DNA of 64,000 nt. Origin: Candidatus Dormiibacterota bacterium (GTDB taxonomy: Bacteria > Chloroflexota > Dormibacteria > Aeolococcales > Aeolococcaceae). The position numbers and the translations under genes are program-made. Shown one piece after another: positions 1,748-39,497 of this stretch (position 1 is its first letter; each line of letters begins with the position of its first letter). Location: contig CAVVJH010000001.1 in assembly GCA_963748505.1 (NCBI GenBank), forward strand, positions 73,124 to 137,123. Direction: 5' to 3'. The notes beneath the pieces were generated by a model. It did not search any database. It worked only from the letters and a program-made list of their open reading frames with translations, and was not told the DNA's origin.

Positions 1748-3424
1748 GTGGACTCGAAGCAGGCTCCGTCCGCACGTCCCGGGATCGCGCTCGGTGGGTA
1801 TCGGTCAGGCCATGCGCGCGCACGGTGGGTCGTCGTCGCTGCACTGGCGACCATCGCCATCACGATGTTCGAATTCGGTGCCGACGCGGCCCAGGTACGG
1901 GTGGCGGCGCGGATTCTGTCGGGGCAGATCGTGGCGCTCAACTCTGTCGCCGCGACCGACACCTATGTGCGCGTGGCCTACATCGCCAGCGAGGTCGGAC
2001 TCCTCGTGCCCTTCCTCGTGTTCCTGTTCTGGCTGCATCGCGCCGCCACCAACGCGGGTGTGTTTGCCGGCGAGCTCCGCTTCACTCCGGGCTGGGCGGT
2101 GGGATGGTTTGTCGTGCCGTTCGCCAACCTGGTGCGGCCTGCGCGAGTTGTCAACGAAATCTGGCAGAGCCAGGACCTGGCGCCGCTGGCCGCGACCAGG
2201 GTCGGGCGCAGCGTGCTGCGTATCTCACCGCTCATCCCGGTGTGGTGGGCGCTGTGGATTCTCGACATCGGTGGGCTCGGTGCGCGATTGCTGGGCATCG
2301 TCTACAGCCAGACCAATTCGCTGGCGGGCATCCGCAACGCGACCTATCTCGACATGGCCTATTCACTGGTGGTGATCGCGTCGCTGCTGGCGACGATTCG
2401 TCTGGTCCGCCGGATGGATTCGCGCGAAGGCGCCAAGGCGGCGCTGCTCGCCACGCAGGCCGCGGAAGCCGCCATCGCCGTGCGCGCAGCCAAGAGCAAG
2501 CGAGCCGGCAAGACGGCGCGCCCGGGCCCGGTGCCGCCGGTGGCAGACATCGGTGTGCCTGCGACCCGCGCAACCAGCATGCTGCAGCGGGTCACGACAG
2601 CGACGGTCGGCAGCGCGCTCGTCGTGACGCCGCTGGCACTCGCCTTTGCGGTGAGCAATGGGACGTCGGCCAAGAGCGCGGTCCCGGCGCAGACACCCAC
2701 GCCTGCGGCGATCTGGACGGCAAGCAGCACGCGCTACACCTCGTGTTCCGACGCGATGTTTCAACCTGCCGGGGTCATCGCCGCGGGCGCGACCAACACC
2801 TGCGGCCACATCGCGATCGGTGCCGCACTCTTCTCCGCCGACTGCAGCACGGGAACGATCCCGACGACGCTGTCCACTGCCGTGTTCGACAGCACCGGAG
2901 GCACGAGCAAACTGGGTTCGGTCAAGGGAGCTGACGGGTCGTGCGAGCTGTCGGTCAGGAGCACCAGCGTGACGACCGCTGTGTTCGCCGGCAACGGCGG
3001 GACCAACCCGGCCAGCCTCCCCGGGTCGATCGTCGTGGTCGCCGATTTCATCCCCACGCCGAACACCGCCGGCATCACCACCATCGGCTTGCGCGTCAAC
3101 GCCAATGGTGAGTTCGATATCGAGCTCGGGAGCGGCGGCGACTACACCGTCAACGAGAGTGCCGGCACGCTGGCCGATCAACTCCTACAGGGCAACTTCA
3201 AGAGCGATCCGGTCGCCGCGCCGAATCTCGCCAAACCAGTACGCGCCGTCGTCTATCTGAACGGCAGCACCGCCGCCGCATTTGTCGACGGGCGTCTGAT
3301 CGGTGCCGGACCGACGATCGTTCCCAACCAGCCGGGCGGATGCGGCTTCTCGTTGAGCAGCAGCAACGTGACCAAAGCCACAGTCGCCAAGCTGCTGGAT
3401 CTCAAGGTGTATGCGGCGGGCTAG
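1748..3424 (+). CDS. DUF4328-domain membrane protein with ~330-aa Ser/Thr/Gly/Ala-rich C-terminal extracytoplasmic region
   Basis: N-terminal region with LHRAATNAGVF...WAVGWFVVPFANLVRPARVVNEIWQ typical of DUF4328; multiple TM helices. Uninterrupted 558-aa ORF. Confidence 0.7.
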   Translation: MDSKQAPSARPGIALGGYRSGHARARWVVVAALATIAITMFEFGADAAQVRVAARILSGQIVALNSVAATDTYVRVAYIASEVGLLVPFLVFLFWLHRAATNAGVFAGELRFTPGWAVGWFVVPFANLVRPARVVNEIWQSQDLAPLAATRVGRSVLRISPLIPVWWALWILDIGGLGARLLGIVYSQTNSLAGIRNATYLDMAYSLVVIASLLATIRLVRRMDSREGAKAALLATQAAEAAIAVRAAKSKRAGKTARPGPVPPVADIGVPATRATSMLQRVTTATVGSALVVTPLALAFAVSNGTSAKSAVPAQTPTPAAIWTASSTRYTSCSDAMFQPAGVIAAGATNTCGHIAIGAALFSADCSTGTIPTTLSTAVFDSTGGTSKLGSVKGADGSCELSVRSTSVTTAVFAGNGGTNPASLPGSIVVVADFIPTPNTAGITTIGLRVNANGEFDIELGSGGDYTVNESAGTLADQLLQGNFKSDPVAAPNLAKPVRAVVYLNGSTAAAFVDGRLIGAGPTIVPNQPGGCGFSLSSSNVTKATVAKLLDLKVYAAG

Positions 3425-3496
3425 TCAGGGGATCCGTCGAGCCTGCTTCCGAGCGCGGTGGGGGCGGCGTCCACGATGCCTGTGACAACCTAGGCT

Positions 3497-4267
3497 GTGA
3501 TGAACGCTCCACGACCACTCGAGCACACCGTTGCGCTGGTCACCGGCGCATCCAGTGGCATCGGCGAGGCGACTGCCGTCGCGCTCGCCAATCTCGGCGC
3601 CGCGGTTGCCCTTGCCGCGCGTCGCACGGAACGCCTCGAGGCCCTGGCGGCACAACTCCGCGCCGAGGGCGCCACCGTGTCGGTGATCACCGCCGATATC
3701 ACTGAGCAAGCCCAGGCAACCGCCGCCGTCGAACAAACGGTGTCGGAACTGGGGCGGCTCGACACGTTGATCAACAACGCAGGTGTGATGCTGCTCGGGC
3801 CGGTCATCGGAGCCCCGGTGGAGGAGTGGGAGCGCATGGTGCGCATCAACCTTCTCGGGCTCTTGTACTGCACCAACGCCGCGCTGCCACATCTGCTCCG
3901 CGCAGCCGAGGACAGCCCACGCGGTGTCGCCGACCTCGTGAACATCAGCTCGGTCGCGGGTCGCGAGACACGCAACGGCAGCGCCGTGTACAACGCGACG
4001 AAACACGGCGTCGGCGCCTTCAGCGACGCGCTGCGCAAGGAGATCTCCAGGCGACACGTGCGCGTCTCCCTGGTGGAACCTGGCGCGGTCGCGACCGAGC
4101 TCGCCGGCCACAACCGCCCGGAGGTGCGCGCCGCCCTGGAAGAACGCTTCTCGACCTTCGAGCTTCTGCAGGCAGACGATATCTCGGCGATCATCACCTT
4201 CATCGTCTCGCGGCCCCGCCATGTGGCGGTCAACGAGGTCCTCGTCCGGCCCACCGAACAGGAGTAG
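3497..4267 (+). CDS. short-chain dehydrogenase/reductase (SDR) family oxidoreductase
   Basis: TGASSGIG Rossmann motif; NISSVAG...Y...K catalytic region; 256 aa. Confidence 0.9.
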   Translation: MMNAPRPLEHTVALVTGASSGIGEATAVALANLGAAVALAARRTERLEALAAQLRAEGATVSVITADITEQAQATAAVEQTVSELGRLDTLINNAGVMLLGPVIGAPVEEWERMVRINLLGLLYCTNAALPHLLRAAEDSPRGVADLVNISSVAGRETRNGSAVYNATKHGVGAFSDALRKEISRRHVRVSLVEPGAVATELAGHNRPEVRAALEERFSTFELLQADDISAIITFIVSRPRHVAVNEVLVRPTEQE

Positions 4268-4287
4268 TCCCGGGGCCGGACGCAGGG

Positions 4288-4671
4288 TTAGGTGCCGGCT
4301 GCCGATTCCTTGCGGTCGGGCAGCTTGAAGTGAGGGTTCTCGATGATGCCGAAGACGTTGCCGCCGGCATCGCGGAGGGTCGCGACGCGTATACCGTCGC
4401 CGACATCCTGCACCTGACCGTGCTCAGTCATGCCTGACGCGAGCAGCGCAGCGTAGGCGTCGCTCGCGCTGCCGACACCCCAGTAGGCGATCGGACCCAC
4501 TGCCACATCGCCGCCAGGGTCGAGGCCAAGCTCGTAGCCGGCGACATTGAATCCGACGTAGAAAGGCTGATCGAAATACGGCTCCTGGCCAAGCACTGCC
4601 GTGTACGCCGCTTTCGCCGCAGCAAGGTCTGGTGCCGGATAGATGACCGTCCGCAATCCAAGGAATTCCAC
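4288..4671 (-). CDS. VOC (glyoxalase/bleomycin-resistance) family protein
   Basis: 127-aa protein VEFLGLRTVIYPAPDLAAAKAAY...GNVFGIIENPHF. GTG start preceded by GGAGAA ribosome-binding site (RBS). The longer 4288..5394 ORF is an upstream extension into the neighbouring gene's alternate frame. Confidence 0.8.
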   Translation of the reverse strand: MEFLGLRTVIYPAPDLAAAKAAYTAVLGQEPYFDQPFYVGFNVAGYELGLDPGGDVAVGPIAYWGVGSASDAYAALLASGMTEHGQVQDVGDGIRVATLRDAGGNVFGIIENPHFKLPDRKESAAGT

Positions 4672-4721
4672 GTGGTTCTCCTGTTGGTTCGTCTGGCCGC
4701 CGATGCTACTCGCAGCGACCT

Positions 4722-6338
4722 TTAGAGGACGACGGTGACGGTGGTCGAGCCACTGCCGGAGACGCCGTCGTTGTCGGTGACCGTGACCGTGATCGTGTAG
4801 CTCCGCAACAACGCGCTGTATGCGTGTGCAAGCACGAAGGTGGTGCCGTTGAGAGTCAGGACATGCGTACCGCTGCCGTCGCCGTAGTTGACCGTCGCGG
4901 TGAACGTGTGGTGAGCCAGATCGCTGTCGGTGAAGCTGCCGGAACCCGAGAAATGCCCCAGTACCGCGACACCTCCGGCCTTCACGGTGACCACCGGCGG
5001 CAGGTCGGGTGGAGGCGTCGGGGCGGGGGTGGGCATCGGGGTGCTCGTCGGGGCGGGAGTTGGTGTGGGTCCGGGCGATGGGGGCACGGTGGGTGTCGGA
5101 GTCGAGTTCGGCGGAGGGGTGGGACCGCCCGGCGCTGTCGTGCCGCCGCCGGGTGCGGGCGTCCCACCACCTGCACCGGTCGTTCCGGTCTGTCCGGGCG
5201 CGGGAGGCACGCTCGGTATCGAACCGGGCGGGGATGGCGTTGCCCCGCCGGTGCTGTGCGTGGGTTGGCCGCCCGTGGACACGGTCGAGATCCCCGAGGT
5301 GGGGCCGGCCGTCGGGCTCGGGCTGGTCAGTGCACCGGGACCGGTGAGTGCGATGGCAGTGGTTCCGGACATAACGGCCGCGCCCCAGTTCCATCCGAGC
5401 CGGTCAACCCAGCCAATCAGGGGGAGCTGCGCGATCCAGGAACCGAAGCCCACGACCCGCCAGAGCCGGCCCATTGAGATGTTGAGGAATGCGCGCACCA
5501 CCACCGGGTCGAACTGGCTCCCCGAGCACTTCACCAGTTCCTGCCGGGCCGCTGACACACTGACCGGCTTGCGATACGGCCGCACCGCGGTCATCACCTC
5601 GTAGGAATCCGCGACCGCCACGATGCGGCCGGCGAGCGAGATCTGATTGCCGGCGAGCCCACGGGGGTATCCGCGGCCGTCGAATCGCTCGTGGTGTTGG
5701 GGCACAGCGTCCGCCCACTCGCCGAGCCAGGAGCTGAGTGGCCCGATGAGCCGCGCCCCTTCCTCAGGATGGCGTTTGACGGCGTCGAACTCCGCGCTGG
5801 TGAGCTTTGCCGGCTTGGAGAGAATTGTTGCCGGCACGACCAGCTTGCCGATGTCGTGCAGCAGCGACGCCCAGCGAAGCCGAGCGCGGTCGCTCGGCGC
5901 CAGCTTCATCTCATCGGCGATGAGGTCAGCGAAGACCCGAACGCGCTCTGAGTGACCACGTGTCTGCCGATCGTGCACGCTCAGGGCCGCGACCAGCCCG
6001 AGCACTTTCTGCATGTACGCGGTGTCGCCGCCGGTGACCCCCTTGTCGCGTGCCTCCTGTAGCTGGCGCTGCAGGTCGCGTGGCTTGCCCACGCGCCGGG
6101 CGATCGCGAAGCGTTTCGGGGCGCGGTCCGGGAAGAGGAGCGAGAGATTGAGCAGGGCCGCAAGCGGGAGGAGGCGGCGCCCAGCGCGCTCCAGCGCGAC
6201 GATCACCACCAGCATGACGAGGCTGACCCCGGCGAACGACAGCGCGGCCGGACCGAGACCGTTCGGGCGCGGCAGGAGGCTGGTCATGATGACGCCTGCC
6301 GCGATGCCGGCAACGGCGGGGAGCACGACCACTGACAC
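4722..6338 (-). CDS. membrane-anchored HD-GYP domain phosphodiesterase with C-terminal Pro/Thr-rich linker and Ig/PKD-like beta domain
   Basis: HD motif (HDRQTRGHSERV, LLHDIGK) and HHERFDGRGYP (GYP). N-terminal TM helices. PTPTPAPTSTPMPTPAPTPPP low-complexity linker. C-terminal beta-rich ~110 aa. Confidence 0.85.
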   Translation of the reverse strand: MSVVVLPAVAGIAAGVIMTSLLPRPNGLGPAALSFAGVSLVMLVVIVALERAGRRLLPLAALLNLSLLFPDRAPKRFAIARRVGKPRDLQRQLQEARDKGVTGGDTAYMQKVLGLVAALSVHDRQTRGHSERVRVFADLIADEMKLAPSDRARLRWASLLHDIGKLVVPATILSKPAKLTSAEFDAVKRHPEEGARLIGPLSSWLGEWADAVPQHHERFDGRGYPRGLAGNQISLAGRIVAVADSYEVMTAVRPYRKPVSVSAARQELVKCSGSQFDPVVVRAFLNISMGRLWRVVGFGSWIAQLPLIGWVDRLGWNWGAAVMSGTTAIALTGPGALTSPSPTAGPTSGISTVSTGGQPTHSTGGATPSPPGSIPSVPPAPGQTGTTGAGGGTPAPGGGTTAPGGPTPPPNSTPTPTVPPSPGPTPTPAPTSTPMPTPAPTPPPDLPPVVTVKAGGVAVLGHFSGSGSFTDSDLAHHTFTATVNYGDGSGTHVLTLNGTTFVLAHAYSALLRSYTITVTVTDNDGVSGSGSTTVTVVL

Positions 6339-6622
6339 GCGGACCAGTGCGCTGAGGACTGGGCGGCGCTGCCACTGGTGGCCTGCTGGAACCGTCTCGG
6401 CTGCGGCGGCCTCGGGAGCATCTGCGATGAGTGGTTCACCTGGCGGTGCCCAGACCCGCGGCGTCGAGACGATGGCTCCAGGGCGCGAGCCTCGCTATAA
6501 GGTTCGGGCCTGTGGCGCCGGTCGTGGTCCCCGTTCGGAATTCTGTGGCGTACGGGTCACTCGCTTGTGGCAGCCGCCGCGTGGGTCAGATCGGCACGCT
6601 TTCCGGTTAGGATGCGGCCTCC

Positions 6623-7244
6623 ATGCCGATCAGCCTCCTGCGCCGCGAGCGGCGCTTCTACGACCTCTTCGACCGTCAGGCGGACAACGTCGTCGCCGCC
6701 GCGCAGCTGTTGAAGGCGGCGCTGGCTGACGACCTGTCGGCAATGCCGGCTCATCAGGCAGCGATCAAGGATCTCGAGCACGCCGGCGACGAACTCACCC
6801 ACGAAATCATCCAGACCCTCCATCGCACATTTATCACGCCGTTTGATCGCGAGGACATCTACGCGCTCAGCTCCGGCCTCGACGACGTGCTCGACTACGT
6901 CGACGAGATCGCCGAGACGATCATCCTCTACGGGATCAGCGACATCTCGCCGGCCGCGAAGTCGATGGCCGGGTTGATCGTTGAAGCGGCGCTGCAGGTT
7001 CAGGCGGCAGTGGGGAAACTCGAGTCGAAAAGCCGGCGTCAGCGAGCATGGGATCGAGGTGCACCGCATCGAGAATCTCGGCGACACCGAGTCCCGCCGG
7101 GCGATCGGGGACCTGTTCAGCGGGACCCATGACGCGGTCACGATCATCAAGCTCAAGGACTTCTACACGTTGCTCGAGGATTCGCTCGACCGTTGCGAGG
7201 ATGTGGCCAACGTGATTGAAGGCATCATCATCAAGAACGCGTGA
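6623..7244 (+). CDS. DUF47 (PhoU-like, Pit-accessory) protein; one apparent frameshift near 7025
   Basis: N-terminal part in ORF 6623..7132 (RRERRFYDLFDRQADNV...). Conserved C-terminus IEVHRIENLGDTESRRAIGDLFSG...LLEDSLDRCEDVANVIEGIIIKNA is in ORF 6981..7244. Stop TGA overlaps the GTG start of pit (GTGA). Confidence 0.7.
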
Positions 7245-8266
7245 CCGGCACCCACGTTCTGCTGGTCGTCACGATCCTGATCGCTTTGGGATTCGATTTC
7301 ACCAATGGTTTCCACGACACCGCCAACGCGGTCGCGACCTCCATCAGCACCCGTGCGCTCGGTCCGCGCACCGCGGTCGGACTCTCCGCTGCTTTCAACC
7401 TGATCGGCGCCCTTGTCGCCATCGAGATCCTGCACACGCACGTTGCCAACACCATCGGCGGACTGGTGGCACCGAAAGCCGGCGTATCACTGGGAATGAT
7501 CATCGCCGCGCTCATCGGCGCGATCATCTGGAATGTCATCACCTGGCGTCTCGGTTTGCCGTCGAGCTCGTCGCATGCCCTCATCGGCGCGCTGGTTGGC
7601 ATGGGCATCGTCGCCTACGGGTTCGACGCGGTGAAGTGGGGATCGGTGCTCCCCGTCGTGATTGCGCTGGTGGCGTCACCGCTGATCGGGTTCGTGCTCT
7701 CGTATCTGTTCACCGTGCTCACGCTCGACGTCTTTCGTCGTGCGCGGCCGAGTCCGATGAACCGCCGCTTCCGTCTCGCGCAGGTCTTGTCGGGGGCCTT
7801 CGTTTCGTTTTCGCACGGGGCCAACGATGCGCAGAAAACCATGGGCGTCATCACGCTCGCGCTGGTCAGCGCCGGCGTGGTGTCGGCGGGTGGGAAGACG
7901 TTCCCGTCGCCACCGCTCTGGGTGGTCGTCGTCGCCGCGACCGCGATCGGTCTTGGCACCTATTCCGGAGGATGGCGGATCATCCGGACCCTGGGGAGCA
8001 AGGTCATCCGCCTGGAGCCCGTTGATGGGTTCTGCGCGCAGACCATGGCTGCGGTCGTCATCCAGGGGGCGACCCAACTGGCGTTGCCGGTGAGCACCAC
8101 GCACGTGGTCTCGGGATCGGTGATCGGCGCCGGGGCGACCAGGAGGTTCGGTGCGGTGCGCTGGGGCGTGGCCCGCAACATTCTGGTCGCCTGGGTCCTG
8201 ACCATCCCGGCCACGGCCGCCATGGCTGCGATCTGCGCCCTGGTGGTCGAGCTCCTCAGGGTGTGA
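7241..8266 (+). CDS. pit: inorganic phosphate transporter, Pit (PiT) family
   Basis: LGFDFTNGFHDTANAVATSI and second half-repeat FSHGANDAQKTMGVI; polytopic; 341 aa. Confidence 0.9.
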   Translation: MTGTHVLLVVTILIALGFDFTNGFHDTANAVATSISTRALGPRTAVGLSAAFNLIGALVAIEILHTHVANTIGGLVAPKAGVSLGMIIAALIGAIIWNVITWRLGLPSSSSHALIGALVGMGIVAYGFDAVKWGSVLPVVIALVASPLIGFVLSYLFTVLTLDVFRRARPSPMNRRFRLAQVLSGAFVSFSHGANDAQKTMGVITLALVSAGVVSAGGKTFPSPPLWVVVVAATAIGLGTYSGGWRIIRTLGSKVIRLEPVDGFCAQTMAAVVIQGATQLALPVSTTHVVSGSVIGAGATRRFGAVRWGVARNILVAWVLTIPATAAMAAICALVVELLRV

Positions 8267-11155: not shown

Positions 11156-14149
11156 ATGGAGAGATCAGTGATGTCGGCATACGATCCGCGTCCGCGCCAC
11201 GGCCGCGCCGGGACAGCGCTGCTGGCCTCGCTGGCGGCGGGCGGCATGGTGATCGGTGCGCCGATCCTGCAAGCGCAACCAGCTGCCGCGCAGACCCGCG
11301 TCTCGACCATCCCCGCAGGGTTCAGCGACTGGACGATGCACAACGGCGATCCCCTGCATCACGCGGTGTCGGCCGAGACGATCCTCTCCAACACGACGCA
11401 GTTCAAATTGCACTGGAGCGCCAACACGGGCTCGCTGAGCTTCTCGTCCCCGGCGGTCGCGTTCAACCCGACGCTCAACGAATCGCTCGTGTATGTCGGC
11501 AACCAAGCCGGCGAGTTCACTGCCTACAACGCTGCCACGGGCGGCGTGGTGTGGACGTTTCAGGTGCCCAAAACCGCGGGGCTCTCCAAGGAGATCGAAT
11601 CGTCGCCGGCAGTTTCGGGCAACACCGTCTATTTCGGTGACGGCGACTACCACGAGTACGCCCTCAACGCGACGACGGGAGCGCTGATCTGCACCTCGCC
11701 GTCGATGGGCGGGATCAGTGCGTCGTCACCGGTGATCGGCAACCCGGCCGGCACCGGGGACGTCCTGTACTTCGGTGATTCCGGGGCGAGCGGTGACACC
11801 AGTGACGGCGGCCATCTGTGGGCGATGTACGGCGTGGGTAACAGTGGCGGCGCGGCGTGCGCAATCTATTGGTCCTTCGATGCTTTCGGAAACCCTCCCG
11901 GGAGTCAGACGGGCTCGTCAGGGGTGTACTCGACGCCCGCCTACGGCACCCTCGCGAATGGCTCACCGGTGGTCGTGGTCGGGAGCACGGATCCTGACGA
12001 TGCGATCTACGGATTCAACGCAATCACCGGTGCAGCGCTCTGGCGGTTCCAGGCATTCGTCGGCATCGACGCCGACATCGGATCGCCGCCGACCATTGCT
12101 GCGCCTCACACCATCGGTGCGGTCGGTTCGCAGACCTACAACGACGGCGTGGTGTACGACACGAGCAAGTCGGCGATCCTCTATGCGCTCGACCTCCAGA
12201 CCGGTGCACAGCTCTGGTCGTTCAACATCAAGACGAGCATCGGGCACGGCGGCAACCCCGCGCAATCGGGAGCCGCACTGGTCGGCAATTTCATCTACAT
12301 CGGCTACGGCTCAGGCATGTACTCACTCGACGCAACCACGGGTGCGCTCAACTGGGTGAGTTCGGTCACGACCGGCGTGGTGTCATCGCCGTCGGTGACC
12401 GGTCCGCCGGGCAGCCAGGTGATCGCGGTCGGGGATCTGACCGGGAACGTCGACGTCTTCGATTTGACGACGGGCAACCTGTTGTTCACCTACAGCACCG
12501 GCGCCTACATCTTCGCGTCCGCCGGTATCTCGACAGGACAGTTCTTCATCACGAGCACCACGGGAGACATCTACGCCTTCGGCGCCAGCAGCGGTGTGCC
12601 GACGCCGGCGATCACGTCCGTCACCCCAAACCACGGCGCGGTCGGCGGAAGCGAGGTCGTGAGCATCAACGGGAACCAGTTCAGCGGGAGTGGCTTCACC
12701 ACATCGGACGTGCTGTTCAACGGCATCGACATCCCGTCGACCAATGCCTTCCCGTGTCTGGGTTCGGCCGGGGGTTGCTTCCAGGTGGATACTCCCGCGC
12801 AGATCACCGTGGACACCCCGGTGAGCGCGGCCGGCACGGTCGATGTCAAGGTGGTGACGCCGGGAGGGCCCAGTCCCAGTACCTCGGACGACCAGTACAC
12901 GTTCGTCGCGCCCGGCGCCTATACCGCGCTGACGCCCCTGCGCATCTGTGACACACGCGCCAATTCCGGTGCACCCCAGTGCGCTGGACACACGCTCGCG
13001 GCCGGCGGATCCTTCACGGTGCAGATCACCGGCACGCCGATCCCAACCAACGCGCAGGCCGTCGTCATCAACCTGACCGCCATCAATCACGGGAGCGTCT
13101 CGACCTTCGTCAGCGCCTTCCCGGCGGGTGGCGCCGTTCCTCGGGCATCGAACATCAACCTGGCATCGGGCGCAGTCAACTCGAATCTCGCGTTCGTGCA
13201 GTTGAGCGCCACCGGCAAGATCACGCTGTTCAACTCGCTCGGCAGCGCCGATGTGATCGTCGACGTCCAGGGCTACTTCGCGCCGCCCGGCGCGGCGCCG
13301 GTCCCCGGAACCTTCCACTCGATGCCGCCTCTCCGGATCTGTGACTCGCGGGCCGGCCAGAACACCGAGTGCGCGACGACGAAAAACAGTCCGATCGCTG
13401 CCGGGACGTGGCGGCGGGTCGTCCTCTCTGGTCTGCCGCCAGGCGCCCCTGGTGGCACGCCATCGATTCCGACGACAGGAGCAGCGGCGGCGGCGTTCAA
13501 CCTCACCGCAACCGCCGGCACGGCCTCGACATACCTCGCGGTCACGGCACCCAATGCATCGGACGCCTGCCCGACCTCCGCTCCCCGGTTTTCGAATCTC
13601 AACCCGGCCGCGGGTGGGAGCATCCCGATTCGCGCGATCTCTCCACTCGGCCCGCACCAGGACGTCTGCGTGTTCAACGCCGCCGGAAGCATCAACTTCA
13701 TCATCGATGTGAACGGCTGGTTCGGGAACGGTCATGAGAGCGCTACCGGAGCGCGCTTCTACTCGGTGGCCCCGGCGCGCATCTGCGATACCCGCCAGGG
13801 ATCCGGCACCGAGTGCGACAGCAATCCGCTCACCCCGAACGACACCGAGATCCTGCCGGTTGCCGGCGTGTCGCCGACGCCCGCCGAAGGTGGCGCGGTC
13901 AAGCCGGTTGCGGTGGTCGTGAACCTCACCGGCGTCGCGGGGACGGCTGCAACGGTGCTCGTGCTCTATCCGAGCGACGTGAGCCCCCGGCCGAAGGCAT
14001 CAGACCTCAACCCCAATGCCGGGCAGGTCATCGCCAATCTCGCCATCGTGAGCCTCGCCCAGACTGGAGGGAACAGCGGTGACGTGAACATGTTCAATGC
14101 GGTCGGGACGATCGACGCCATCCTCGACGTCGCGGGCTGGTTCCAGTAG
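11156..14149 (+). CDS. large secreted multidomain protein: signal peptide, PQQ-like beta-propeller, IPT/TIG domain, three tandem ~130-aa repeats
   Basis: Signal peptide ALLASLAAGGMVIGAPILQAQPAAAQ. Propeller blades (VYFGD..YALNATTGAL, LYALDLQTGAQLWSF, MYSLDATTGALNWVS). IPT (ITSVTPNHGAVGGSEVVSINGNQFSG). Repeats begin YTALTPLRICDTR / FHSMPPLRICDSR / FYSVAPARICDTR. Uninterrupted 997-aa ORF. Confidence 0.85.
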   Translation: MERSVMSAYDPRPRHGRAGTALLASLAAGGMVIGAPILQAQPAAAQTRVSTIPAGFSDWTMHNGDPLHHAVSAETILSNTTQFKLHWSANTGSLSFSSPAVAFNPTLNESLVYVGNQAGEFTAYNAATGGVVWTFQVPKTAGLSKEIESSPAVSGNTVYFGDGDYHEYALNATTGALICTSPSMGGISASSPVIGNPAGTGDVLYFGDSGASGDTSDGGHLWAMYGVGNSGGAACAIYWSFDAFGNPPGSQTGSSGVYSTPAYGTLANGSPVVVVGSTDPDDAIYGFNAITGAALWRFQAFVGIDADIGSPPTIAAPHTIGAVGSQTYNDGVVYDTSKSAILYALDLQTGAQLWSFNIKTSIGHGGNPAQSGAALVGNFIYIGYGSGMYSLDATTGALNWVSSVTTGVVSSPSVTGPPGSQVIAVGDLTGNVDVFDLTTGNLLFTYSTGAYIFASAGISTGQFFITSTTGDIYAFGASSGVPTPAITSVTPNHGAVGGSEVVSINGNQFSGSGFTTSDVLFNGIDIPSTNAFPCLGSAGGCFQVDTPAQITVDTPVSAAGTVDVKVVTPGGPSPSTSDDQYTFVAPGAYTALTPLRICDTRANSGAPQCAGHTLAAGGSFTVQITGTPIPTNAQAVVINLTAINHGSVSTFVSAFPAGGAVPRASNINLASGAVNSNLAFVQLSATGKITLFNSLGSADVIVDVQGYFAPPGAAPVPGTFHSMPPLRICDSRAGQNTECATTKNSPIAAGTWRRVVLSGLPPGAPGGTPSIPTTGAAAAAFNLTATAGTASTYLAVTAPNASDACPTSAPRFSNLNPAAGGSIPIRAISPLGPHQDVCVFNAAGSINFIIDVNGWFGNGHESATGARFYSVAPARICDTRQGSGTECDSNPLTPNDTEILPVAGVSPTPAEGGAVKPVAVVVNLTGVAGTAATVLVLYPSDVSPRPKASDLNPNAGQVIANLAIVSLAQTGGNSGDVNMFNAVGTIDAILDVAGWFQ
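12915..14146 (+). repeat. three intragenic tandem domain repeats (~400 nt each) each starting with a P-x-RICD[TS]R motif
   Basis: Repeat starts seen at about 12917, 13321 and 13760. Shared pattern: VxxNLTA...NxNG...IDVxGWF/YF. Confidence 0.6.
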
Positions 14150-14933: not shown

Positions 14934-16140
14934 TCAGGCGGGCGCAGCAGTGCGCGGCGTCGACTCCATGATCGCGAGCAGTTGGACCAGCACGGGGCGC
15001 AGATCTGAGCGGATGCTGTACACGATGTCGGGTTCCTGCCCGGTGGAGACCAGCACGCCGGTCGACTGGAACCGATCCAGCTGGTGGCGGACCTCGAACG
15101 GCGTGAGGTTGCTGCGCTTGGCGAGGTCTTCAAGCTTGGTCGGATGGTCGAGCAGCTGGGTCACGATGCGCAGGCGAGCCGCATCCCCGAGGGCATGCAG
15201 GAGGTCGCCGGTAGCGGTGAGCTCATCGTCGGATCGCGAGACCAGCGAGCGCACGGCCTCGAGCGCGGCGCGCGGCCGCAGCGGGAGACCGTGACCGCTG
15301 ACGTAGCTCGTCTGGAGCAGTACCTCACCCGCGGTGGCACCGGCACTGCGTCGCGCCACGATGACGTAGAACGCGCCCACCACCAGCAGCACGACGACGG
15401 CGTCGACCCAGCCGCTGCCGAACCCAACGCCAAGCAGCCGGCCGAGCGCAAGCAGCCCCGTGATGATGCTCGCCACCACGCCGATGTCCACTCCCGCCGC
15501 GAGCAGCACGCGGACCCAGCGAGGGACACGCACCAGGCCCGCACCTGACGACGACGGCGTTCTGCGCACCGCGAGATAGCACCCCACGCCCATCACGATG
15601 AGGATCGCTCCTTGCACGGCGAGCTTCTGGATCTGGTCGAGGAAGTGCTCGACAGGGACCCCGATGAGGATGCCGAGCGCCACGTAGATCCCGACCCAGA
15701 CCACAGTGGAGGAGACCATCGCCAGGATGAACGATCTGCGCGGCGCCTTCACCGCCCCCGCCACCAGCGTCGTGTAGATGCGCAGCCCGGGAATGAGGCG
15801 GCTCACGGCGATGCCGATCCATCCCGCCGATCGCAGCCGATCCTCGACGCGCTCGAGATTCTTCTGCTGGCGAAGGCGCCGTGCCAGGCCCCGCAGACCG
15901 CGATCACCCACCGCGCGCGCCCAGCTGTAGCCGACCAGCGAGCCGGCGACGCAGGCGATCAGCGCCAATGGGATGAACGCGTACGGGTTGAGTCCCACCC
16001 GATGCGATGAGCAGTCCGGCCACCAGCAACGTGAGCTCCCCGGGGGCAAAGGGCAGCGGAACGCCCGCTTCCTCGGCGAAGAGCAGCGCTGGTAGGAGCG
16101 CCAGGGCGACCGCGCCGTGTAGGCCCTGCAGGAAGTTCAC
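14934..16140 (-). CDS. DedA/SNARE-associated membrane protein fused to a C-terminal ArsR-like winged-helix domain; one apparent frameshift near 16000
   Basis: DedA N-terminus (FLQGLHGAVALALLPALLFAEEAGVPLPFAPGELTLLVAGLLIASG) in ORF 15904..16140. Rest of DedA (VSRLIPGLRIYTTLVAGAVKAP) and the wHTH (ARLRIVTQLLDHPTKLEDLAKRSNLTPFEVRHQLDRFQSTGVL) are in ORF 14934..16049. Confidence 0.7.
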
Positions 16141-16191
16141 GGCATCATCATGCCGTGAGGGTCCCGATTCGGTCGATATCCCTCACACCCG

Positions 16192-17401
16192 GTGGCGCCG
16201 TTCTGCAAGAGTTTCGCGGTGCTGGAGACCGATGTCGTGGTGGTCGGAGCAGGTCCGAGCGGCGCCACCGCAGCGCTGCTGCTGGCTCGGGCCGGCCGGC
16301 AGGTGGTGCTCGTCGACCGCGCACGGTTCCCACGCGACAAGGCCTGCGGGGAGGGATTGATGCCTCCGGGAGTGGACGTCCTGCGCCGCCTCGGGCTCTA
16401 CGACGCCGTGCTCGAGACCGGTGCGCGGCCGGTCCACGGAGTGAGGTATCAGCACCCCGGCGGCTTCCCCAAGGCGTACGCGGCGTTCCCGACGCCACCC
16501 GAGGGCGGACCCGCGTGGGCCTTGGGTATCCGGCGGACCTGGTTCGATGCCGCGCTGGTCGACGCGGTGCGGCGGGAAGATCGAGCGACGGTCATCGAAG
16601 GCGCGCGCGTCACCGGCCTCATCCGTTCGGCGTCGGGCCGAGTGTCGGGCGTCGAGACCAGCGGCGGTCCCATCGGCGCGCGGATCGTCATCGGCGCGGA
16701 CGGGCTCCACTCGAAAGTCCGCGCCTGGGCAGGGCTCAACAAGCGGTCACGTCCACAGCGGCGATTCGGTTTAGCCGGACACTGGCGGGTCGACACCACC
16801 GGCCGCGACGCCCTGCTCATCACGCTCGGCGATGGACACGAGTGGTACGAGGCTCCGGTTGGTCCGGCAGGAGCTCCTGGTGTCGGTGCTTGACGGCCGG
16901 TCGCACTCGCGACTCACGGCGCGCACCTATGAGCAGGCTGCGCGGCAGAGCGTTCCGGCCGTGCGGGACGCGGCGTTGGTGTCCCGACCGCTCGGCGGTG
17001 CCCAATTCCATCAACGCAGTCGCGCCGCCGCTGCGGGGCGGGTGTTCCTCGTCGGCGATGCAATCGGCTACGACGATCCGACCACCGGCGACGGCCTCGC
17101 GATTGGGATGCTCCTCGCCGAGCGACTCGCGAAGCACATCGACGCCCTGCTCGGCGGTGCGGGTTCGCCCGGCGTGGCGGCTCGGCACTACCAGGCCGAC
17201 CACGTCTCGCTGGTGCGCGACCGTCGCCGTCTGACCCGACTGGTGCTCGTCCAGGACCGGTCGCAGTTTCTGAGCCGCCGCGCCATCAACAAGGCCGCGC
17301 GGGACCCGCGGACGTTCACCAAGCTGCTGGCCATCAACTGCGGCTATCAGCGATTCCGGGAGCTGTCGCCACGGGACTGGCTGTCGCTCGCGGGGATCTG
17401 A
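16192..17401 (+). CDS. FAD-dependent oxidoreductase, geranylgeranyl-reductase-like family; one apparent frameshift near 16860
   Basis: DVVVVGAGPSGATAALLLARAGRQVVLVD dinucleotide-binding motif; GADGLHSKVR. C-terminal VFLVGDAIGYDDPTTGDGLAIGM lies in ORF 16832..17401. Confidence 0.75.
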
Positions 17402-17964
17402 TGGCTGTGCCGCCCTCGACGCGGGATAAACCGAGGCACCCCCTGGAAGGCCTCGCGGTATCCGGGAATCGCCTCGAGGAGCCGTTCCTCCGCGCGGATG
17501 CGCGGCACGAGCACCGCAGCGTTGGCCACGGACAGGAGGGCCGCCTCGGGGACCGCACCGACTGCGATGGGCAGGCAGGCAAACTCCAGCGCGACGGCGA
17601 CATAGTTGGGATGGCGGATGTATCGGTACGGACCGCCGGTTTCGATGTGCACTCCCGGCCGGACGTGCGCTGTGACGTTCCAGTCGGCGCCGAGGGTGCG
17701 GATCACCCAGAGCCGCAGTCCGGCTGAGGCTGCGAGACCCAGGAGCGCTGCGGTCCGCACCGGTCTGGGAACCTGCCGCCCCGGGCGGGGCCAGGCGCTC
17801 GTCGCGAAGAGCGCGAGGTGGGCGGCAACCATCGCCGGATAGGTCCGGGGTGATGCCTGCGCACCTGGTCCGCTGCGGGAGCGATTCCGGGCCGAGATCC
17901 GGAGTTCGACGAGGCGCTGGGCGCCGCTCACGAGCACCAGGCCCATCCGAGCCCGAGCGCTCAT
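17347..17964 (-). CDS. isoprenylcysteine carboxyl methyltransferase (ICMT)-family membrane methyltransferase
   Basis: IETGGPYRYIRHPNYVAVALEF motif. ATGA start/stop overlap with the upstream type III PKS gene. Confidence 0.75.
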   Translation of the reverse strand: MSARARMGLVLVSGAQRLVELRISARNRSRSGPGAQASPRTYPAMVAAHLALFATSAWPRPGRQVPRPVRTAALLGLAASAGLRLWVIRTLGADWNVTAHVRPGVHIETGGPYRYIRHPNYVAVALEFACLPIAVGAVPEAALLSVANAAVLVPRIRAEERLLEAIPGYREAFQGVPRFIPRRGRHSHQIPASDSQSRGDSSRNR

Positions 17965-19067
17965 GCCGTCCAGAGCAGCTCGAGGAGCTCGATCGTCAGT
18001 CCGGGGCCGAAGGCCGCCGCCAGACCTCGGCCGGAGGGTTCCGGGAGGTGGCGCGAGAGCTCGTCAAGCACGAACAGGATTGCCGCCGAGGAGGTGTTGC
18101 CGTACTGGCGTAACACGGTGCGGGTGGCGGCAGTCTGCGGAGCATCCAGCTCGAGGCACCGCACCACCGCATCCACGATCGCCTGGCCGCCCGGGTGGAC
18201 GGCCACCGCGTCCAGCTCGCGAGCATCGCCGATGAACGCGGTGACGAGCTGGGGGAGGTTGAGCTCCAGGAGCCGCGGAAGCTGCCGCGACACCACCACG
18301 CGAAACCCGTCGTCCGCGCGCTCGAAGCCAAGTGCGTCGGTGCTGGCGGCGAGGACCAGCTCCGAGGTGCGGCCGATACCGATCCGGCCGGATGCCGCGT
18401 CACCGCGCAACACCGCCGCGCCGGCGCCGTCGCCGAACACCAGCACGCTCAGGAGGTTGTCGGCTGAGGTGTCCTCCGGGCGAAAGGTGAGCGACGGCAC
18501 CTCGACGGCCACCACCAGGGCCAACTCGCCGGGATGTGATCGCACCCAGTCCGCAGCCGAGCTGAGCGACGCGGCGCCGCCCGCGCAACCGAAGTTCATG
18601 AACGGCATCCGCCGGATGTCGCGCCTGAGCCCGAGGTGGTTGATGAGATGCACGTCGATACCCGGGAGGACGAAACCGGTGCAGGAGGCGACGACGACCA
18701 ATCCGATGTCCTTGGTCGCGATGCCTGACGCGGTCAGGGCGCGCTCCGCGGCGAGCATCGCCAGGGGCATGGCTTCCTCGGCATAGCGGACGGCCTGCTC
18801 GCCGGGCGTCAGCGGCAGGATCGCCTCCTCGATGGGCCGCACCAGAAACCGCTGGCTGTTGGACAGCTCGTCGGCGAAGAGGCCGACCCGCCGCTCCAGG
18901 CGGGGCCAGAGCTGCGTGATCAGACGGAGCACCTCGTCACCGCCGGCACGATGCTGAGGCACGGCCGTCCCCAGCCCGTGGATCGTCACCGGTACCACCA
19001 CCGCCTCCCGCTCACGAGGAAGGGGCTCGGGCAGCGCCGCAGTGCGGATCGCCGCCTCAACAACCAT
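17961..19067 (-). CDS. type III polyketide synthase (chalcone/stilbene synthase family)
   Basis: Catalytic Cys in FMNFGCAGGAASL, His in VHPGGQAIVDAV, Asn in YGNTSSAAILFVLDE; 368 aa. Confidence 0.9.
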   Translation of the reverse strand: MVVEAAIRTAALPEPLPREREAVVVPVTIHGLGTAVPQHRAGGDEVLRLITQLWPRLERRVGLFADELSNSQRFLVRPIEEAILPLTPGEQAVRYAEEAMPLAMLAAERALTASGIATKDIGLVVVASCTGFVLPGIDVHLINHLGLRRDIRRMPFMNFGCAGGAASLSSAADWVRSHPGELALVVAVEVPSLTFRPEDTSADNLLSVLVFGDGAGAAVLRGDAASGRIGIGRTSELVLAASTDALGFERADDGFRVVVSRQLPRLLELNLPQLVTAFIGDARELDAVAVHPGGQAIVDAVVRCLELDAPQTAATRTVLRQYGNTSSAAILFVLDELSRHLPEPSGRGLAAAFGPGLTIELLELLWTA

Positions 19068-32807: not shown

Positions 32808-34009
32808 GGTTCCCTCGATGATCCTCTGGGGTCCGCCGGGGAGCGGAAAGACCACGCTCGCGGCGCTGATCGCGCGGCGCGACCAGCGCGACATTCGAAG
32901 CCGTCAGCGCCGACCAGCGCCGGCGTCGCCGACCTGCGCAAGGTCGTCGAGCGCGCGCGACGAGCGCCTGCGCGACGGGGACGGAGGACGGTCCTCTTCA
33001 TCGACGAGATCCATCGCTTCAACAAGACCCAGCAGGACGCGGTGCTCCCGCACGTCGAGAACGGGACGGTGACGCTGCTCGGCGCCACCACCGAGAACCC
33101 GTCGTTCGAGGTCAACGCGGCGCTGCTGTCGCGGAGCCGCGTGATCCGCCTGGAGGCGCTCGGAGCCGGAGGATCTGCGCAACCTCATCGAGCGGGCGCT
33201 GACCGATGCCGAGCGCGGGCTCGGCGCGCAGCACGTGGCGGTCGACGCCGGAGGCGATCGACCGGCTGGTCGACTCTCTGCGGCGGTGACGCGCGGATCG
33301 CGCTCAACTCCCTGGAGCTCGCCGTGCAGGCGGCGCGCGAAGGATGCGTCGGGGGTCGTCCGCGTGACGGTCGCCGACATCGAAGGCGCGCTGCAGAACC
33401 CGGCGCTGCTCTACGACCGCGCCGGCGACCAGCATTACTGGCTGGTCTCCGCCTTCATCAAGTCGCTGCGCGGCAGCGATCCGGACGCCGCGGTGTACTG
33501 GCTGGCGCGCATGCTGGAGGCGGGCGAGGATCCGCTGTTCGTCGCGCGCCGCATGGTCATTCTCGCAGCCGAGGACGTGGGCCTCGCCGACCCGCACGCG
33601 CTGGGCGTCGCCGTCGCCGCGCAGCAGGCGGCGCACTTCGTCGGCATGCCCGAGGGATTCCTGCCGCTCGCCGAGGCGGCGCTGTATCTCGCGGCGGCGC
33701 CGAAGAGCAACAGCGTGCTGCGCGCCTATGTCGCCGCGTCGGCGGACGTGGCGGAGACGCTGCATCAGCCGGTGCCGCTCCACCTGCGCAACGCGGTGAC
33801 CGGCCTGGGTCGCGCGATGGGCTATGGCAGCGGCTATCGATACGCGCACGACCATGAAGGCGGAGTGGTCGAGCAGCAGCATCTGCCCGAGTCGCTTCGC
33901 TGGTCGCCAGTACTACGACCCATCGGACCATGGAGCCGAGCGCGAGGTCACCGAGCGCCTGCGAGGCGCATCCGAGAGACGCTGGCAGCGGCGCGAATCC
34001 GAGTCTTAA
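32719..34009 (+). pseudogene. rarA: replication-associated recombination protein A (RarA/MgsA AAA+ ATPase), at least 4 apparent frameshifts
   Basis: [48 protein letters not shown] (Walker A). Sensor region [33 protein letters not shown] (ORF 33042..). MgsA_C region [43 protein letters not shown] (ORF 33235..). Tail AGRQYYDPSDHGAEREV (ORF 33824..34009). Confidence 0.65.
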
Positions 34010-34248
34010 GACGATTGGCCTAGCGGCGCCGGGATGCCGCCCGGGCTGACCATCATCGCGACGGGAATTCACTTCTTTGAAACGCAAGTCCCCCTGATAG
34101 GCGGGCGGGCGCCGACCCAGTTCAGTGGTTTACCCTCGCGGGCTCCCCCTCCCCGCGGCACCGGGTGTATCGCGGTTCTGCTGGGTCGGTGCCACCGCCG
34201 ACTTCTCTCTCCAGAGTTAGAAATATTCAGTTAGGCTGGGCTACGACC

Positions 34249-38152: not shown

Positions 38153-38226
<74 letters not shown>

Positions 38227-39257: not shown

Positions 39258-39269
39258 AGAATCGGCAGT

Positions 39270-39353
39270 GCCGGGCTGGCGAAATGGTAGACGCGGCGGT
39301 CTTAAAAACCGCTGGGGGAAACCCCGTTTCGGGTTCGAGTCCCGAGCTCGGCA
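39270..39353 (+). tRNA. tRNA-Leu (anticodon TAA)
   Basis: GCCGGGCTGGCGAAATGGTAGACGCGGCGGTCTTAAAAACCGCTGGGGGAAACCCCGTTTCGGGTTCGAGTCCCGAGCTCGGCA. Long variable arm, anticodon loop CTTAAAA. Confidence 0.85.
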
Positions 39354-39497
39354 GGGATATCCGGCCGTTTGCGTGCCGGTGACTGACCCGCTGCCGGCGG
39401 CCGCGGCGGCCGTACGCGTTGCCGGCCGAAGTGCGAGCTGCGCCCCTGGTGGGTACGCCACCGCACGGAAAGCGCGCGTCTCACTCTGTCACCATTC

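Follow-up and report, generated by a model that had tools for sequence, protein, structure and literature searches.

An HD-GYP family protein of Candidatus Dormiibacterota with a C-terminal PKD-type domain of likely extracytoplasmic location

A stretch of 64,000 nucleotides of Candidatus Dormiibacterota DNA (assembly GCA_963748505.1, contig CAVVJH010000001.1, positions 73,124 to 137,123 of the forward strand; hereafter the window) was analyzed, and an open reading frame (ORF) on its minus strand was found to encode an HD-GYP catalytic domain placed among membrane segments and followed by a long Pro/Thr-rich linker and a PKD-type immunoglobulin (Ig)-like domain. The protein appears to join a member of the HD-GYP family to a PKD fold in an architecture that was not found described in the literature searched, and it belongs to a large family in which a constant N-terminal core is followed by interchangeable C-terminal modules. 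The best explanation of these data, which we regard as probable, was that of an HD-GYP phosphodiesterase that is polytopic in the membrane and built "sensor-last", with a PKD module on the outside of the cell. A preliminary description of this DNA had already proposed that an HD-GYP core, transmembrane (TM) regions, a Pro/Thr linker and a beta-rich C-terminal domain were encoded in one ORF, and every part was recovered in the order stated. The features of the gene are listed below, with amino acids (aa) numbered from the GTG codon and the type of evidence where relevant, including AlphaFold2 (AF2) models and Kyte-Doolittle (KD) hydropathy.

4722..6338, minus strand: HD-GYP/PKD ORF, 538 aa from GTG, a single open frame
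4722..4724, minus strand: stop codon, end of the 538-aa ORF
4725..5000, minus strand: PKD-like Ig-fold domain (aa 447-538), from AF2, Foldseek and PKD_4
5001..5324, minus strand: Pro/Thr/Gly/Ser-rich linker (aa 339-446), 108 aa, predicted disordered by AF2
5325..5390, minus strand: segment B (aa 317-338, NWGAAVMSGTTAIALTGPGALT), proposed TM3, from hydropathy and the family pattern
5406..5471, minus strand: segment A (aa 290-311, GRLWRVVGFGSWIAQLPLIGWV), conserved, low confidence in AF2
5478..5987, minus strand: HD-GYP catalytic domain (aa 118-287), from Pfam HD_5 and HD, matches in the Protein Data Bank (PDB) and AF2
5988..6191, minus strand: conserved juxtamembrane region (aa 50-117; RRLLPLAALLNLSLLFPDRAPKRF...), predicted helical by AF2 with a predicted local distance difference test score (pLDDT) of 55-85
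6192..6254, minus strand: TM2 (aa 29-49), followed by E-R-x-x-R-R; KD 2.66 (aa 31-49), AF2 helix 28-54
6273..6335, minus strand: TM1 (aa 2-22); KD 2.25 (aa 3-21), AF2 helix 2-21 with pLDDT 81-93
6336..6338, minus strand: GTG, the first canonical start, inside the conserved junction of N-tail and TM1
6339..6425, minus strand: N-terminal tail (..PAGHQWQRRPVLSALVR), predicted cytoplasmic, upstream of the GTG, from codon conservation
6426..6428, minus strand: proposed ATC (AUC) start; 10 of 11 loci have ATC in frame at this point of the alignment
6436..6441, minus strand: Shine-Dalgarno-like AGGTGA, 7 nt upstream of the ATC
6429..6578, minus strand: conserved 5' region, candidate promoter and/or leader, the 150 nt or so before the proposed start, from a 10-locus alignment

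The gene at 4722..6338 was real and intact. Its single frame contained no internal stop, and thus no hidden stop splits the gene, a point on which the preliminary description had left room for doubt. The GC content at third codon positions (GC3) was 0.82, a coding-type composition that matched the high GC3 of the real genes in the window. A public protein copy (P0001; NCBI/ENA) was 100% identical to the 538-aa window protein, with the same GTG start, and a protein homologue search returned more than 100 homologues of 50-95% identity, with near-full-length coverage and the same domain order; a search for orthologues of like architecture was one of the checks proposed in the preliminary description. 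Since an identical protein and more than 100 near-full-length homologues share this order, the domain fusion is not a frame artefact. The contrary reading, two genes fused by an assembly or frame error or else a pseudogene, could appeal to the frameshifted genes that do exist in the window (PhoU_div near 7030 and an FAD monooxygenase near 16870) and to a relative, L021, in which the gene is split in the linker. Nevertheless, the frame in the window was continuous, GC3 was high throughout, and the homologues came independently from different samples and assemblers with the same full-length order; the probability of an artefact is negligible and this reading was effectively refuted.

In L021 (positions 3001-4667 of a 1.34-Mb contig of a metagenome-assembled genome, MAG), the orthologous HD-GYP gene consisted of two overlapping ORFs, one of 476 aa and the other an 89-aa PKD piece, with the split at the end of the Pro-rich linker. 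This split within the linker was probably due to an indel.

The catalytic domain was recognized by Pfam HD_5 (PF13487) at aa 118-280 (E=9.6e-38, 130 bits against a cut-off of 27.2) and by Pfam HD (PF01966; E=5e-18, 65.9 bits against a cut-off of 22). In the alignment to PmGH, the residues H129, H161, D162, K165, H190, H215, H216, E217, D220, G221, G223, Y224, P225 and D244 corresponded to those of the solved enzyme, and all seven metal ligands of the binuclear core, the GYP loop and the Lys that contacts cyclic di-GMP (c-di-GMP), K165, were retained. Alignments of 88, 125 and 147 relatives showed little or no variation at the signature residues; the conserved HD...HD...GYP core claimed beforehand was thus complete, with all catalytic motifs present. 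Sequence matches in the PDB included V-cGAP3 (5z7c), PmGH (4mcw), PA4781 (4r8z) and DvhD, with E-values from 1e-20 to 1e-36, the best being V-cGAP3, an HD-GYP specific for cyclic GMP-AMP (cGAMP; E=9e-35), and the HD-GYP domains of solved structures scored about 72-124 bits against the full protein. An AF2 model of aa 1-345, built from a 125-sequence alignment, reached a mean pLDDT of 83, with 90-98 across the HD-GYP domain, and a Foldseek search with the modelled domain returned first 4r8z (PA4781), 9rbz (DvhD) and 4mcw (PmGH), with E-values from 1.5e-10 to 1e-9 and target TM-scores of up to 0.80.

The position of the third-metal ligand of PmGH, Glu185, was occupied by Gln125, so that the acidic ligand of the trinuclear PmGH type is missing and a binuclear site like that in the PA4781 structure is more likely than a trinuclear one. 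This Gln was kept in at least 90% of the Dormiibacterota clade and was variable in the wider family. The NCBIfam model NF053512, for response-regulator HD-GYP proteins of the RpfG/NosR type, matched the HD-GYP part only, with 115 bits against a cut-off of 400, and no REC domain was found in the protein by Pfam and NCBIfam scans. Given a complete domain in which the seven metal ligands, the GYP loop and the Lys are all kept, the enzyme is very probably active. Family knowledge alone would make c-di-GMP its substrate, possibly together with cGAMP or pGpG.

The C-terminal domain was predicted as a PKD-type Ig fold, in a divergent form. The AF2 model of aa 447-538 was an all-beta sandwich with pLDDT 92-98, in keeping with the beta-rich Ig/PKD-like domain expected for this region. 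The best domain-size matches in Foldseek were the PKD domains of the clostridial collagenases ColG and ColH, which superposed with a root-mean-square deviation (rmsd) of 2.7-3.1 Å; target TM-scores were 0.66-0.75 for the PKD domains of ColG, ColH, Epp and PrtV and 0.48 for SorCS2 (1wgo). The PKD-type matches were 4tn9, 4aqo, 4jrw, 2y72, 4u6t, 6aem, 4l9d and 1wgo, and general Ig and fn3 folds were matched too, so that the fold alone is not specific for PKD. At the sequence level, Pfam PKD_4 (PF18911) scored 25.0 bits on the domain alone (E=1.9e-5), 2 bits short of its cut-off of 27, and the whole-protein scan gave a weak PKD_4 match at aa 472-535. Furthermore, 25 of 25 diverse C-domains of the family matched PKD_4 at E<=0.01 (best 1e-8), ten of these also matched PF00801, and many homologues carried a precomputed PF18911 match. 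The PKD motifs VNYGDGSG and TVTVTDNDG were present in the window sequence, and a profile of the family C-domains gave no match at E<=0.01 among PDB sequences. The PKD domains of ColG, ColH, Vibrio PrtV and Epp share with this domain the Ig-like beta-sandwich (rmsd of about 3 Å), 18-24% identity and motifs of the YGDG and TVTD type; those domains are carried by secreted enzymes, whereas the window protein has a single PKD domain tethered to a signalling enzyme.

The linker that precedes this domain was composed of P (31%), T (21%), G (18%), S (11%) and A (7%), 88% together, with one charged residue. Its 108 aa agreed well with the low-complexity Pro/Thr linker of about 100 aa noted beforehand, and its length was kept in close relatives (median 107 aa). 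The label "actinobacterial" did not hold for the source organism, since the nearest named relatives were Candidatus Dormiibacterota MAGs, though Actinomycetota share the family.

The named sources of the homologues were mostly Candidatus Dormiibacterota, with a few records binned elsewhere (e.g., Mycobacterium sp. and Saccharimonadales), and the two full-length genomic matches were the Dormibacteraeota MAGs L001 and L002, at 68-69% identity. These relatives place the window most likely in this phylum and not in an actinobacterium. Additionally, aa 1-311 recurred at about 50% identity in Actinomycetota MAGs (Acidimicrobiia, Thermoleophilia, Gaiellaceae and a Cellulomonas bin), whose ORFs kept the Arg-rich N-tail, the two TM helices, the juxtamembrane motif, HD-GYP, the segment A motif and then segment B. 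Beyond segment B, these members continued with Thr/Pro-rich spacers and quite different ends, namely 4-8 Big_9/cadherin-like repeats (in proteins of up to 1525 aa), pentapeptide repeats or domains without assignment.

The extent of the family was estimated by a HMMER search of protein clusters (50% identity) with aa 1-345, from which the best 150 clusters were taken. All 150 scored at least 321 bits over aa 3-340, and the matched proteins, 298-1666 aa long, carried the match at their N-terminus, bar a few N-terminally truncated sequences; the family therefore comprises at least 150 clusters at 50% identity. A Pfam scan of 74 family representatives found the tail domains Big_9 in ten, Cadherin_5 in nine, fn3 in five and PKD_4 in three, and Laminin_G_3, DUF642, MBG_2, He_PIG and pentapeptide repeats in one each. 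The median tail was 212 aa long, and 73% of the representatives contained a 60-aa window with at least 70% P/T/S/A/G. The database names of these proteins were generic, such as "HD-GYP domain-containing protein" and "tandem-95 repeat protein".

The N-terminal TM helices that had been described as flanking the HD-GYP core were found as two strong helices, with the KD values listed above. Pro7 of TM1 was nearly invariant (at least 90% conserved in the family alignments), and the positions R51, R54 and R55 after TM2 were charged in 88-95% of the family, mainly as Arg. In the juxtamembrane region, P58, F69, P70, P74 and A80 were invariant across the Dormiibacterota and Actinomycetota members of the alignment, and the family motif RRLLPLxAL..LSLxFPDxAPSRF was kept in the Actinomycetota ORFs. 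The Pfam scan of aa 1-117 gave no match, HAMP included.

A hydrophobic segment had also been reported after the HD-GYP core. This part of the claim stood, in that aa 290-338 form a conserved region, and it required one amendment: the region holds two segments, the one quoted beforehand (A) and a second one (B), which is TM-like in the wider family. Segment A carried the conserved residues G290, R291, W301 and P306 and the family motif GRLRxxxGPLxWLAQLP, and column statistics described it as an uncharged core of 15 residues with two Pro and with Arg on both flanks. Its KD was 1.03 in the window protein (aa 293-311) and 0.6-1.4 in the family, and its hydrophobic moment was only moderately amphipathic. 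In the AF2 model, a helix at 278-303 ran unbroken, with low confidence, from the last HD-GYP helix into segment A, which is probably a continuation of that helix at the membrane interface. Segment B was an uncharged Ala/Val/Gly/Thr/Leu run according to the family column statistics. Its KD was 1.1 in the window protein, the mean being 1.35 in Dormiibacterota relatives (up to 1.96) and about 1.7 in Actinomycetota relatives (range 1.4-2.1); the Eisenberg hydrophobicity <H> in the window protein was 0.53 for A and 0.50 for B.

Taken with the charge distribution, these features point to a topology with the N-terminus inside, TM1, TM2, a cytoplasmic HD-GYP domain, segment A at the inner face, segment B as TM3 and the tail outside, which we consider likely. 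The number of K+R per 15 aa was 2.6-3.4 in the N-tail and after TM2 as compared with about 1.2 in the TM1-TM2 loop. The Arg-rich N-tail and post-TM2 stretch thus argue that the N-terminus and the end of TM2 are inside and that HD-GYP is cytoplasmic. The best evidence for an extracytoplasmic C-terminus was the swapping of surface-protein modules behind the last hydrophobic segment, and the family pattern favoured a single crossing, by segment B. Extracytoplasmic proteins are the typical setting of Pro/Thr linkers and of PKD domains, and no topology evidence placing the PKD domain inside was seen. On the strength of the family tail modules, the segment B pattern and the charge bias, the earlier proposal of an extracytoplasmic C-terminal domain tethered to a cytoplasmic hydrolase is the best-supported reading, and again a likely one. 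The estimate was kept at this level because segments A and B of the window protein are equally marginal, the charge bias around B is weak and AF2 is unconfident there; the full-length AF2 model was poor outside the PKD domain, and the aa 1-345 model, with its deeper alignment, was good for TM1, TM2 and HD-GYP.

According to the model favoured here, the linker of about 108 aa would span the envelope and hold the PKD domain at the cell surface, and it may be long enough in principle to cross the cell wall. The outside module could then act as an input that changes HD-GYP activity and lowers or raises c-di-GMP ("outside-in" signalling), to which we give slightly less than an even chance. Such an input would come from the capture of a ligand of the surface or matrix, from self-association or from a pull on the tether. 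The signal would be relayed by TM3 and by segment A, which adjoins the final catalytic-domain helix, and TM3 may also act against the bundle formed by TM1, TM2 and the juxtamembrane region; the altered HD-GYP activity would then lower or raise c-di-GMP. The function assigned to the tail is a putative sensing one.

Several observations weigh against this model of an outward-facing sensor. Segments A and B are equally, and marginally, hydrophobic in the window protein (KD 1.03 versus 1.1); taken alone, this sequence would also fit zero or two crossings. No clear K+R contrast was seen just before versus after segment B, the pLDDT of aa 290-345 was 43-57, and the pentapeptide-repeat tails of some relatives are not specifically extracellular. 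Moreover, the best PDB sequence match was the cGAMP-specific V-cGAP3, and the comparison of the neighbourhoods of related loci revealed no conserved gene neighbour hinting at a ligand or pathway. The homologue search with the C-domain profile gave only proteins of 54-171 aa, and no PKD fusion to other signalling outputs was seen in it; the argument of a "promiscuous sensor domain" therefore does not apply to this PKD domain. Most of these "PKD-only" proteins are probably gene fragments, L021 being the one confirmed split gene.

The main rival keeps the topology and makes the outside module an anchor or localiser, which would fix a constitutive phosphodiesterase at the wall, the S-layer, a matrix polymer, the pole or the septum; in a variant of it, the tail would drive oligomerisation and create a local c-di-GMP sink. 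Surface proteins classically use PKD, Big_9, cadherin-like and fn3 domains for binding or as spacers and not to sense small ligands, the core is under strong conservation with a tail that is free to vary, and there is no signal-conversion module such as HAMP between membrane and enzyme, all of which would suit an anchor. Nevertheless, the juxtamembrane region and both segments, A and B, equal the active site in conservation, which exceeds the needs of a passive anchor, and in the AF2 model segment A is continuous with the last catalytic helix, a geometry suited to passing on a conformational change. The localiser and sensor readings do not appear separable by sequence, and we consider the localiser unlikely, though a serious candidate. 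A cytoplasmic linker and PKD domain is a less probable arrangement still, in which A and B would form a membrane hairpin (two crossings) or neither would cross, both being peripheral or soluble helices. The near-equal, sub-threshold values of A and B in the window protein, both by KD and by <H>, the weak charge bias around B, the uninformative AF2 prediction for this region and the pentapeptide repeats of some relatives, which are often cytoplasmic, are compatible with it. In the Actinomycetota relatives, however, segment A has flanking and internal charges and two Pro in its 15-residue core, B alone is TM-like (KD 1.4-2.1), and the tails are mostly of secreted or surface domain types, some of them with more than 1000 aa of Big_9/cadherin-like repeats; the extracytoplasmic character of Pro/Thr linkers and PKD domains in general points the same way. 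Similarly improbable is an enzyme not chiefly directed at c-di-GMP, either a 3'3'-cGAMP or pGpG phosphodiesterase or a protein acting mainly through its partners, as some HD-GYP proteins work through protein-protein interaction. The leading position of V-cGAP3 among the PDB sequence matches (E=9e-35) and the replacement of PmGH Glu185 by Gln125, which points to a PA4781-like binuclear site, would fit such an enzyme; against it, the enzyme retains every core ligand, the GYP motif and the conserved Lys, and no CD-NTase or other cGAMP-related Pfam family was found in the approximately 35 window ORFs that were scanned, the remaining ORFs being unscanned.

The sensor-last reading was compared with known HD-GYP proteins. 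HD-GYP is normally C-terminal to its sensors, as stated in the preliminary description and confirmed by the survey of Galperin and Chou (10.1101/2021.11.05.467447). According to the same survey, the membrane or periplasmic inputs of HD-GYP are dCache, PBPb, CHASE2 and MASE9-12, and none of the HD-GYP enzymes with extracytoplasmic sensors has been characterised by experiment; a sensor-last layout is not described in it. The Streptomyces HD-GYP proteins are of the 6TM-HD-GYP type (PMC6205966). The literature search retrieved no paper linking HD-GYP with PKD, or Dormibacterota with c-di-GMP.

The solved HD-GYP proteins (PmGH 4mcw, PA4781 4r8z, DvhD 9rbz and V-cGAP3 5z7c) have the same catalytic domain by sequence and predicted fold, and they share with the window protein the HD, HHExxDGxGYP and Asp ligands and the conserved Lys. 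They are soluble and have N-terminal GAF, REC or PAS inputs, whereas the HD-GYP domain of the window protein lies between membrane segments with a long tail after it; PmGH, in addition, has Glu as its third-metal ligand in place of the Gln found here. The dCache-, PBPb- and CHASE2-HD-GYP proteins and the MASE9-12-HD-GYP proteins (e.g., Streptomyces HdgA and V. cholerae VC1295) are also one-component TM proteins, in which a cytoplasmic HD-GYP domain receives its input from the envelope or membrane. In these receptors, the sensor or the 6-8-TM domain is N-terminal and HD-GYP is at the C-terminal end, whereas the window protein has 2 TM helices upstream only, no HAMP, a third membrane segment downstream and a C-terminal module predicted to be extracytoplasmic. 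With two upstream TM helices and no HAMP, it falls outside the MASE9-12 and HAMP-linked classes, MASE9-12 being judged by TM count alone.

In RsgI-type anti-sigma factors and PknB-type Ser/Thr kinases, a cytoplasmic effector is followed by a membrane crossing, often a Pro/Thr-rich spacer, and a C-terminal extracellular binding module. The logic of this layout matches that of the window protein, with no homology implied; the differences are the HD-GYP hydrolase as effector and the extra N-terminal TM hairpin. Nothing in these findings overturns what is known of HD-GYP enzymes. The natural "domain-swap" variants on one constant core suit the study of transmembrane control of HD-GYP.

The ORF limits of the preliminary description required a partial revision: the frame at 4722..6338 stood, and coding very probably extends upstream to the ATC at 6428. 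The frame was open for 53 codons upstream of the GTG at 6338, as far as a TAG at 6497-6495. Within this part, the PAGHQWQRRPVLSALVR stretch was conserved in all related loci with mostly synonymous changes; its codon-position entropy across 11 loci was 0.55/0.31/1.09 for positions 1/2/3, and this concentration of variation at third codon positions argues that the stretch is translated. The RW..RP motif of the N-tail was present in the family consensus as well. The 11 Dormiibacterota loci compared included the window, L001, L002, L017, L018, L020, L021, L022, L024 and L025. In the window, L018, L020 and L025, there was no ATG, GTG or TTG from the upstream in-frame stop to the QWQRRP motif. L020 and L025 had an in-frame stop 2 codons before the shared ATC, and in L025 a start at the first canonical codon would cut most of TM1. 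Most other loci showed a G-rich run (GGGGG, GGGGGG, GAGGGTGG) ending 6-9 nt ahead of the shared ATC, weaker in L022; this run, like AGGTGA in the window, is a candidate ribosome-binding site. Because the conserved N-tail lies upstream of the canonical start and the shared in-frame ATC stands behind a G-rich run, translation probably starts at ATC 6428, giving a protein of 568 aa.

In E. coli, initiation from AUC reaches about 1-2% of the AUG level, and the confirmed non-canonical starts of that species number only two, both AUU (10.1101/063800). Given that AUC is a weak initiator in E. coli, its conservation suggests deliberately low or regulated expression, which would be held low by the AUC start behind the G-rich ribosome-binding site and the conserved 150-nt upstream region. 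This 5' region contained invariant blocks such as GCCACAG, CCGA and GCGG..GGG across 10 Dormiibacterota loci; it was conserved although the upstream genes differ between loci, and it was non-coding in at least 5 loci, as indicated by in-frame stops. Its RNAalifold consensus was weak (-6.5 kcal/mol) with almost no covariation, a search of 6380-6640 against Rfam gave no match even at E<=10 (neither a c-di-GMP nor another known riboswitch), and nothing was found in a scan of 4200-6800 for sigma-70 promoters and terminators. The region could be a promoter or operator or an unrecognised leader. Gene callers placed the start of the HD-GYP gene differently in every assembly examined. If true, the conserved AUC start would be a rare, well-supported case of non-canonical initiation and a warning that gene callers misplace the start of this gene.

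A broader and more tentative proposal joins these results: the family, widespread in Dormiibacterota and Actinomycetota, would consist of receptors for surface contact or matrix, in which exchangeable adhesin-type modules (PKD, cadherin-like/Big_9, fn3 and lectin-like) on wall-spanning Pro/Thr tethers control HD-GYP via a conserved 3-TM scaffold, and its Dormiibacterota branch would be kept scarce by the AUC start and possibly a regulatory leader. Although we regard this proposal as rather unlikely as a whole, its consequence would be that what the cell touches or secretes feeds back directly on c-di-GMP. Adhesion and matrix production are controlled by c-di-GMP, and a large family with the opposite domain order and adhesin-like modules would give monoderm soil bacteria a new route from surface events to this messenger.

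As for the surrounding genes, a divergent PhoU_div/Pit pair was found beside the HD-GYP gene in the window, L017 and L025; the neighbourhood was otherwise not conserved. In the window, the PhoU_div (DUF47) gene (6623-7244, plus strand), divergent from the HD-GYP gene, was frameshifted near 7030: tblastn with the intact orthologue of L017 matched in frame 2 as far as 7033 and in frame 3 from 7029 onwards. It was followed by an intact PHO4/Pit phosphate transporter gene at 7241-8266. The gene for an FAD-binding monooxygenase (16192-17401, plus strand) had a frameshift near 16866-16874 when compared with the intact 393-aa L017 orthologue. Both frameshifts suggest assembly indels or pseudogenes in the contig. 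Furthermore, the ORF at 33235-34023 (plus strand) resembled an MgsA-type AAA+ ATPase in its C-terminal parts alone (AAA_assoc_2 and MgsA_C) and lacked the N-terminal ATPase part; it may be another frameshifted or a truncated gene.

At 1748-3424 (plus strand), a protein of 558 aa was encoded with an N-terminal DUF4328 membrane domain and a C-terminal region of about 300 aa rich in Ala/Thr/Ser/Gly and without domain assignment. This gene adjoined one for a short-chain dehydrogenase/reductase (SDR), and the DUF4328-SDR pair was near the HD-GYP gene in L017 too. A 997-aa protein with PQQ/BamB-like beta-propeller repeats was encoded at 11156-14149 (plus strand). Synteny was observed among 14934-19067 of the window, 1-3733 of L017 and 686-4621 of L020, in a group of genes for a type III polyketide synthase, an ICMT/PEMT-like methyltransferase, the FAD monooxygenase and a VTT-domain membrane protein; the window methyltransferase was putatively identified from its position. 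The only RNA genes detected in the window by Rfam (at the gathering threshold) and ARAGORN were tRNA-Cys(GCA) at 38153-38226 (minus strand) and tRNA-Leu(TAA) at 39269-39354 (plus strand).

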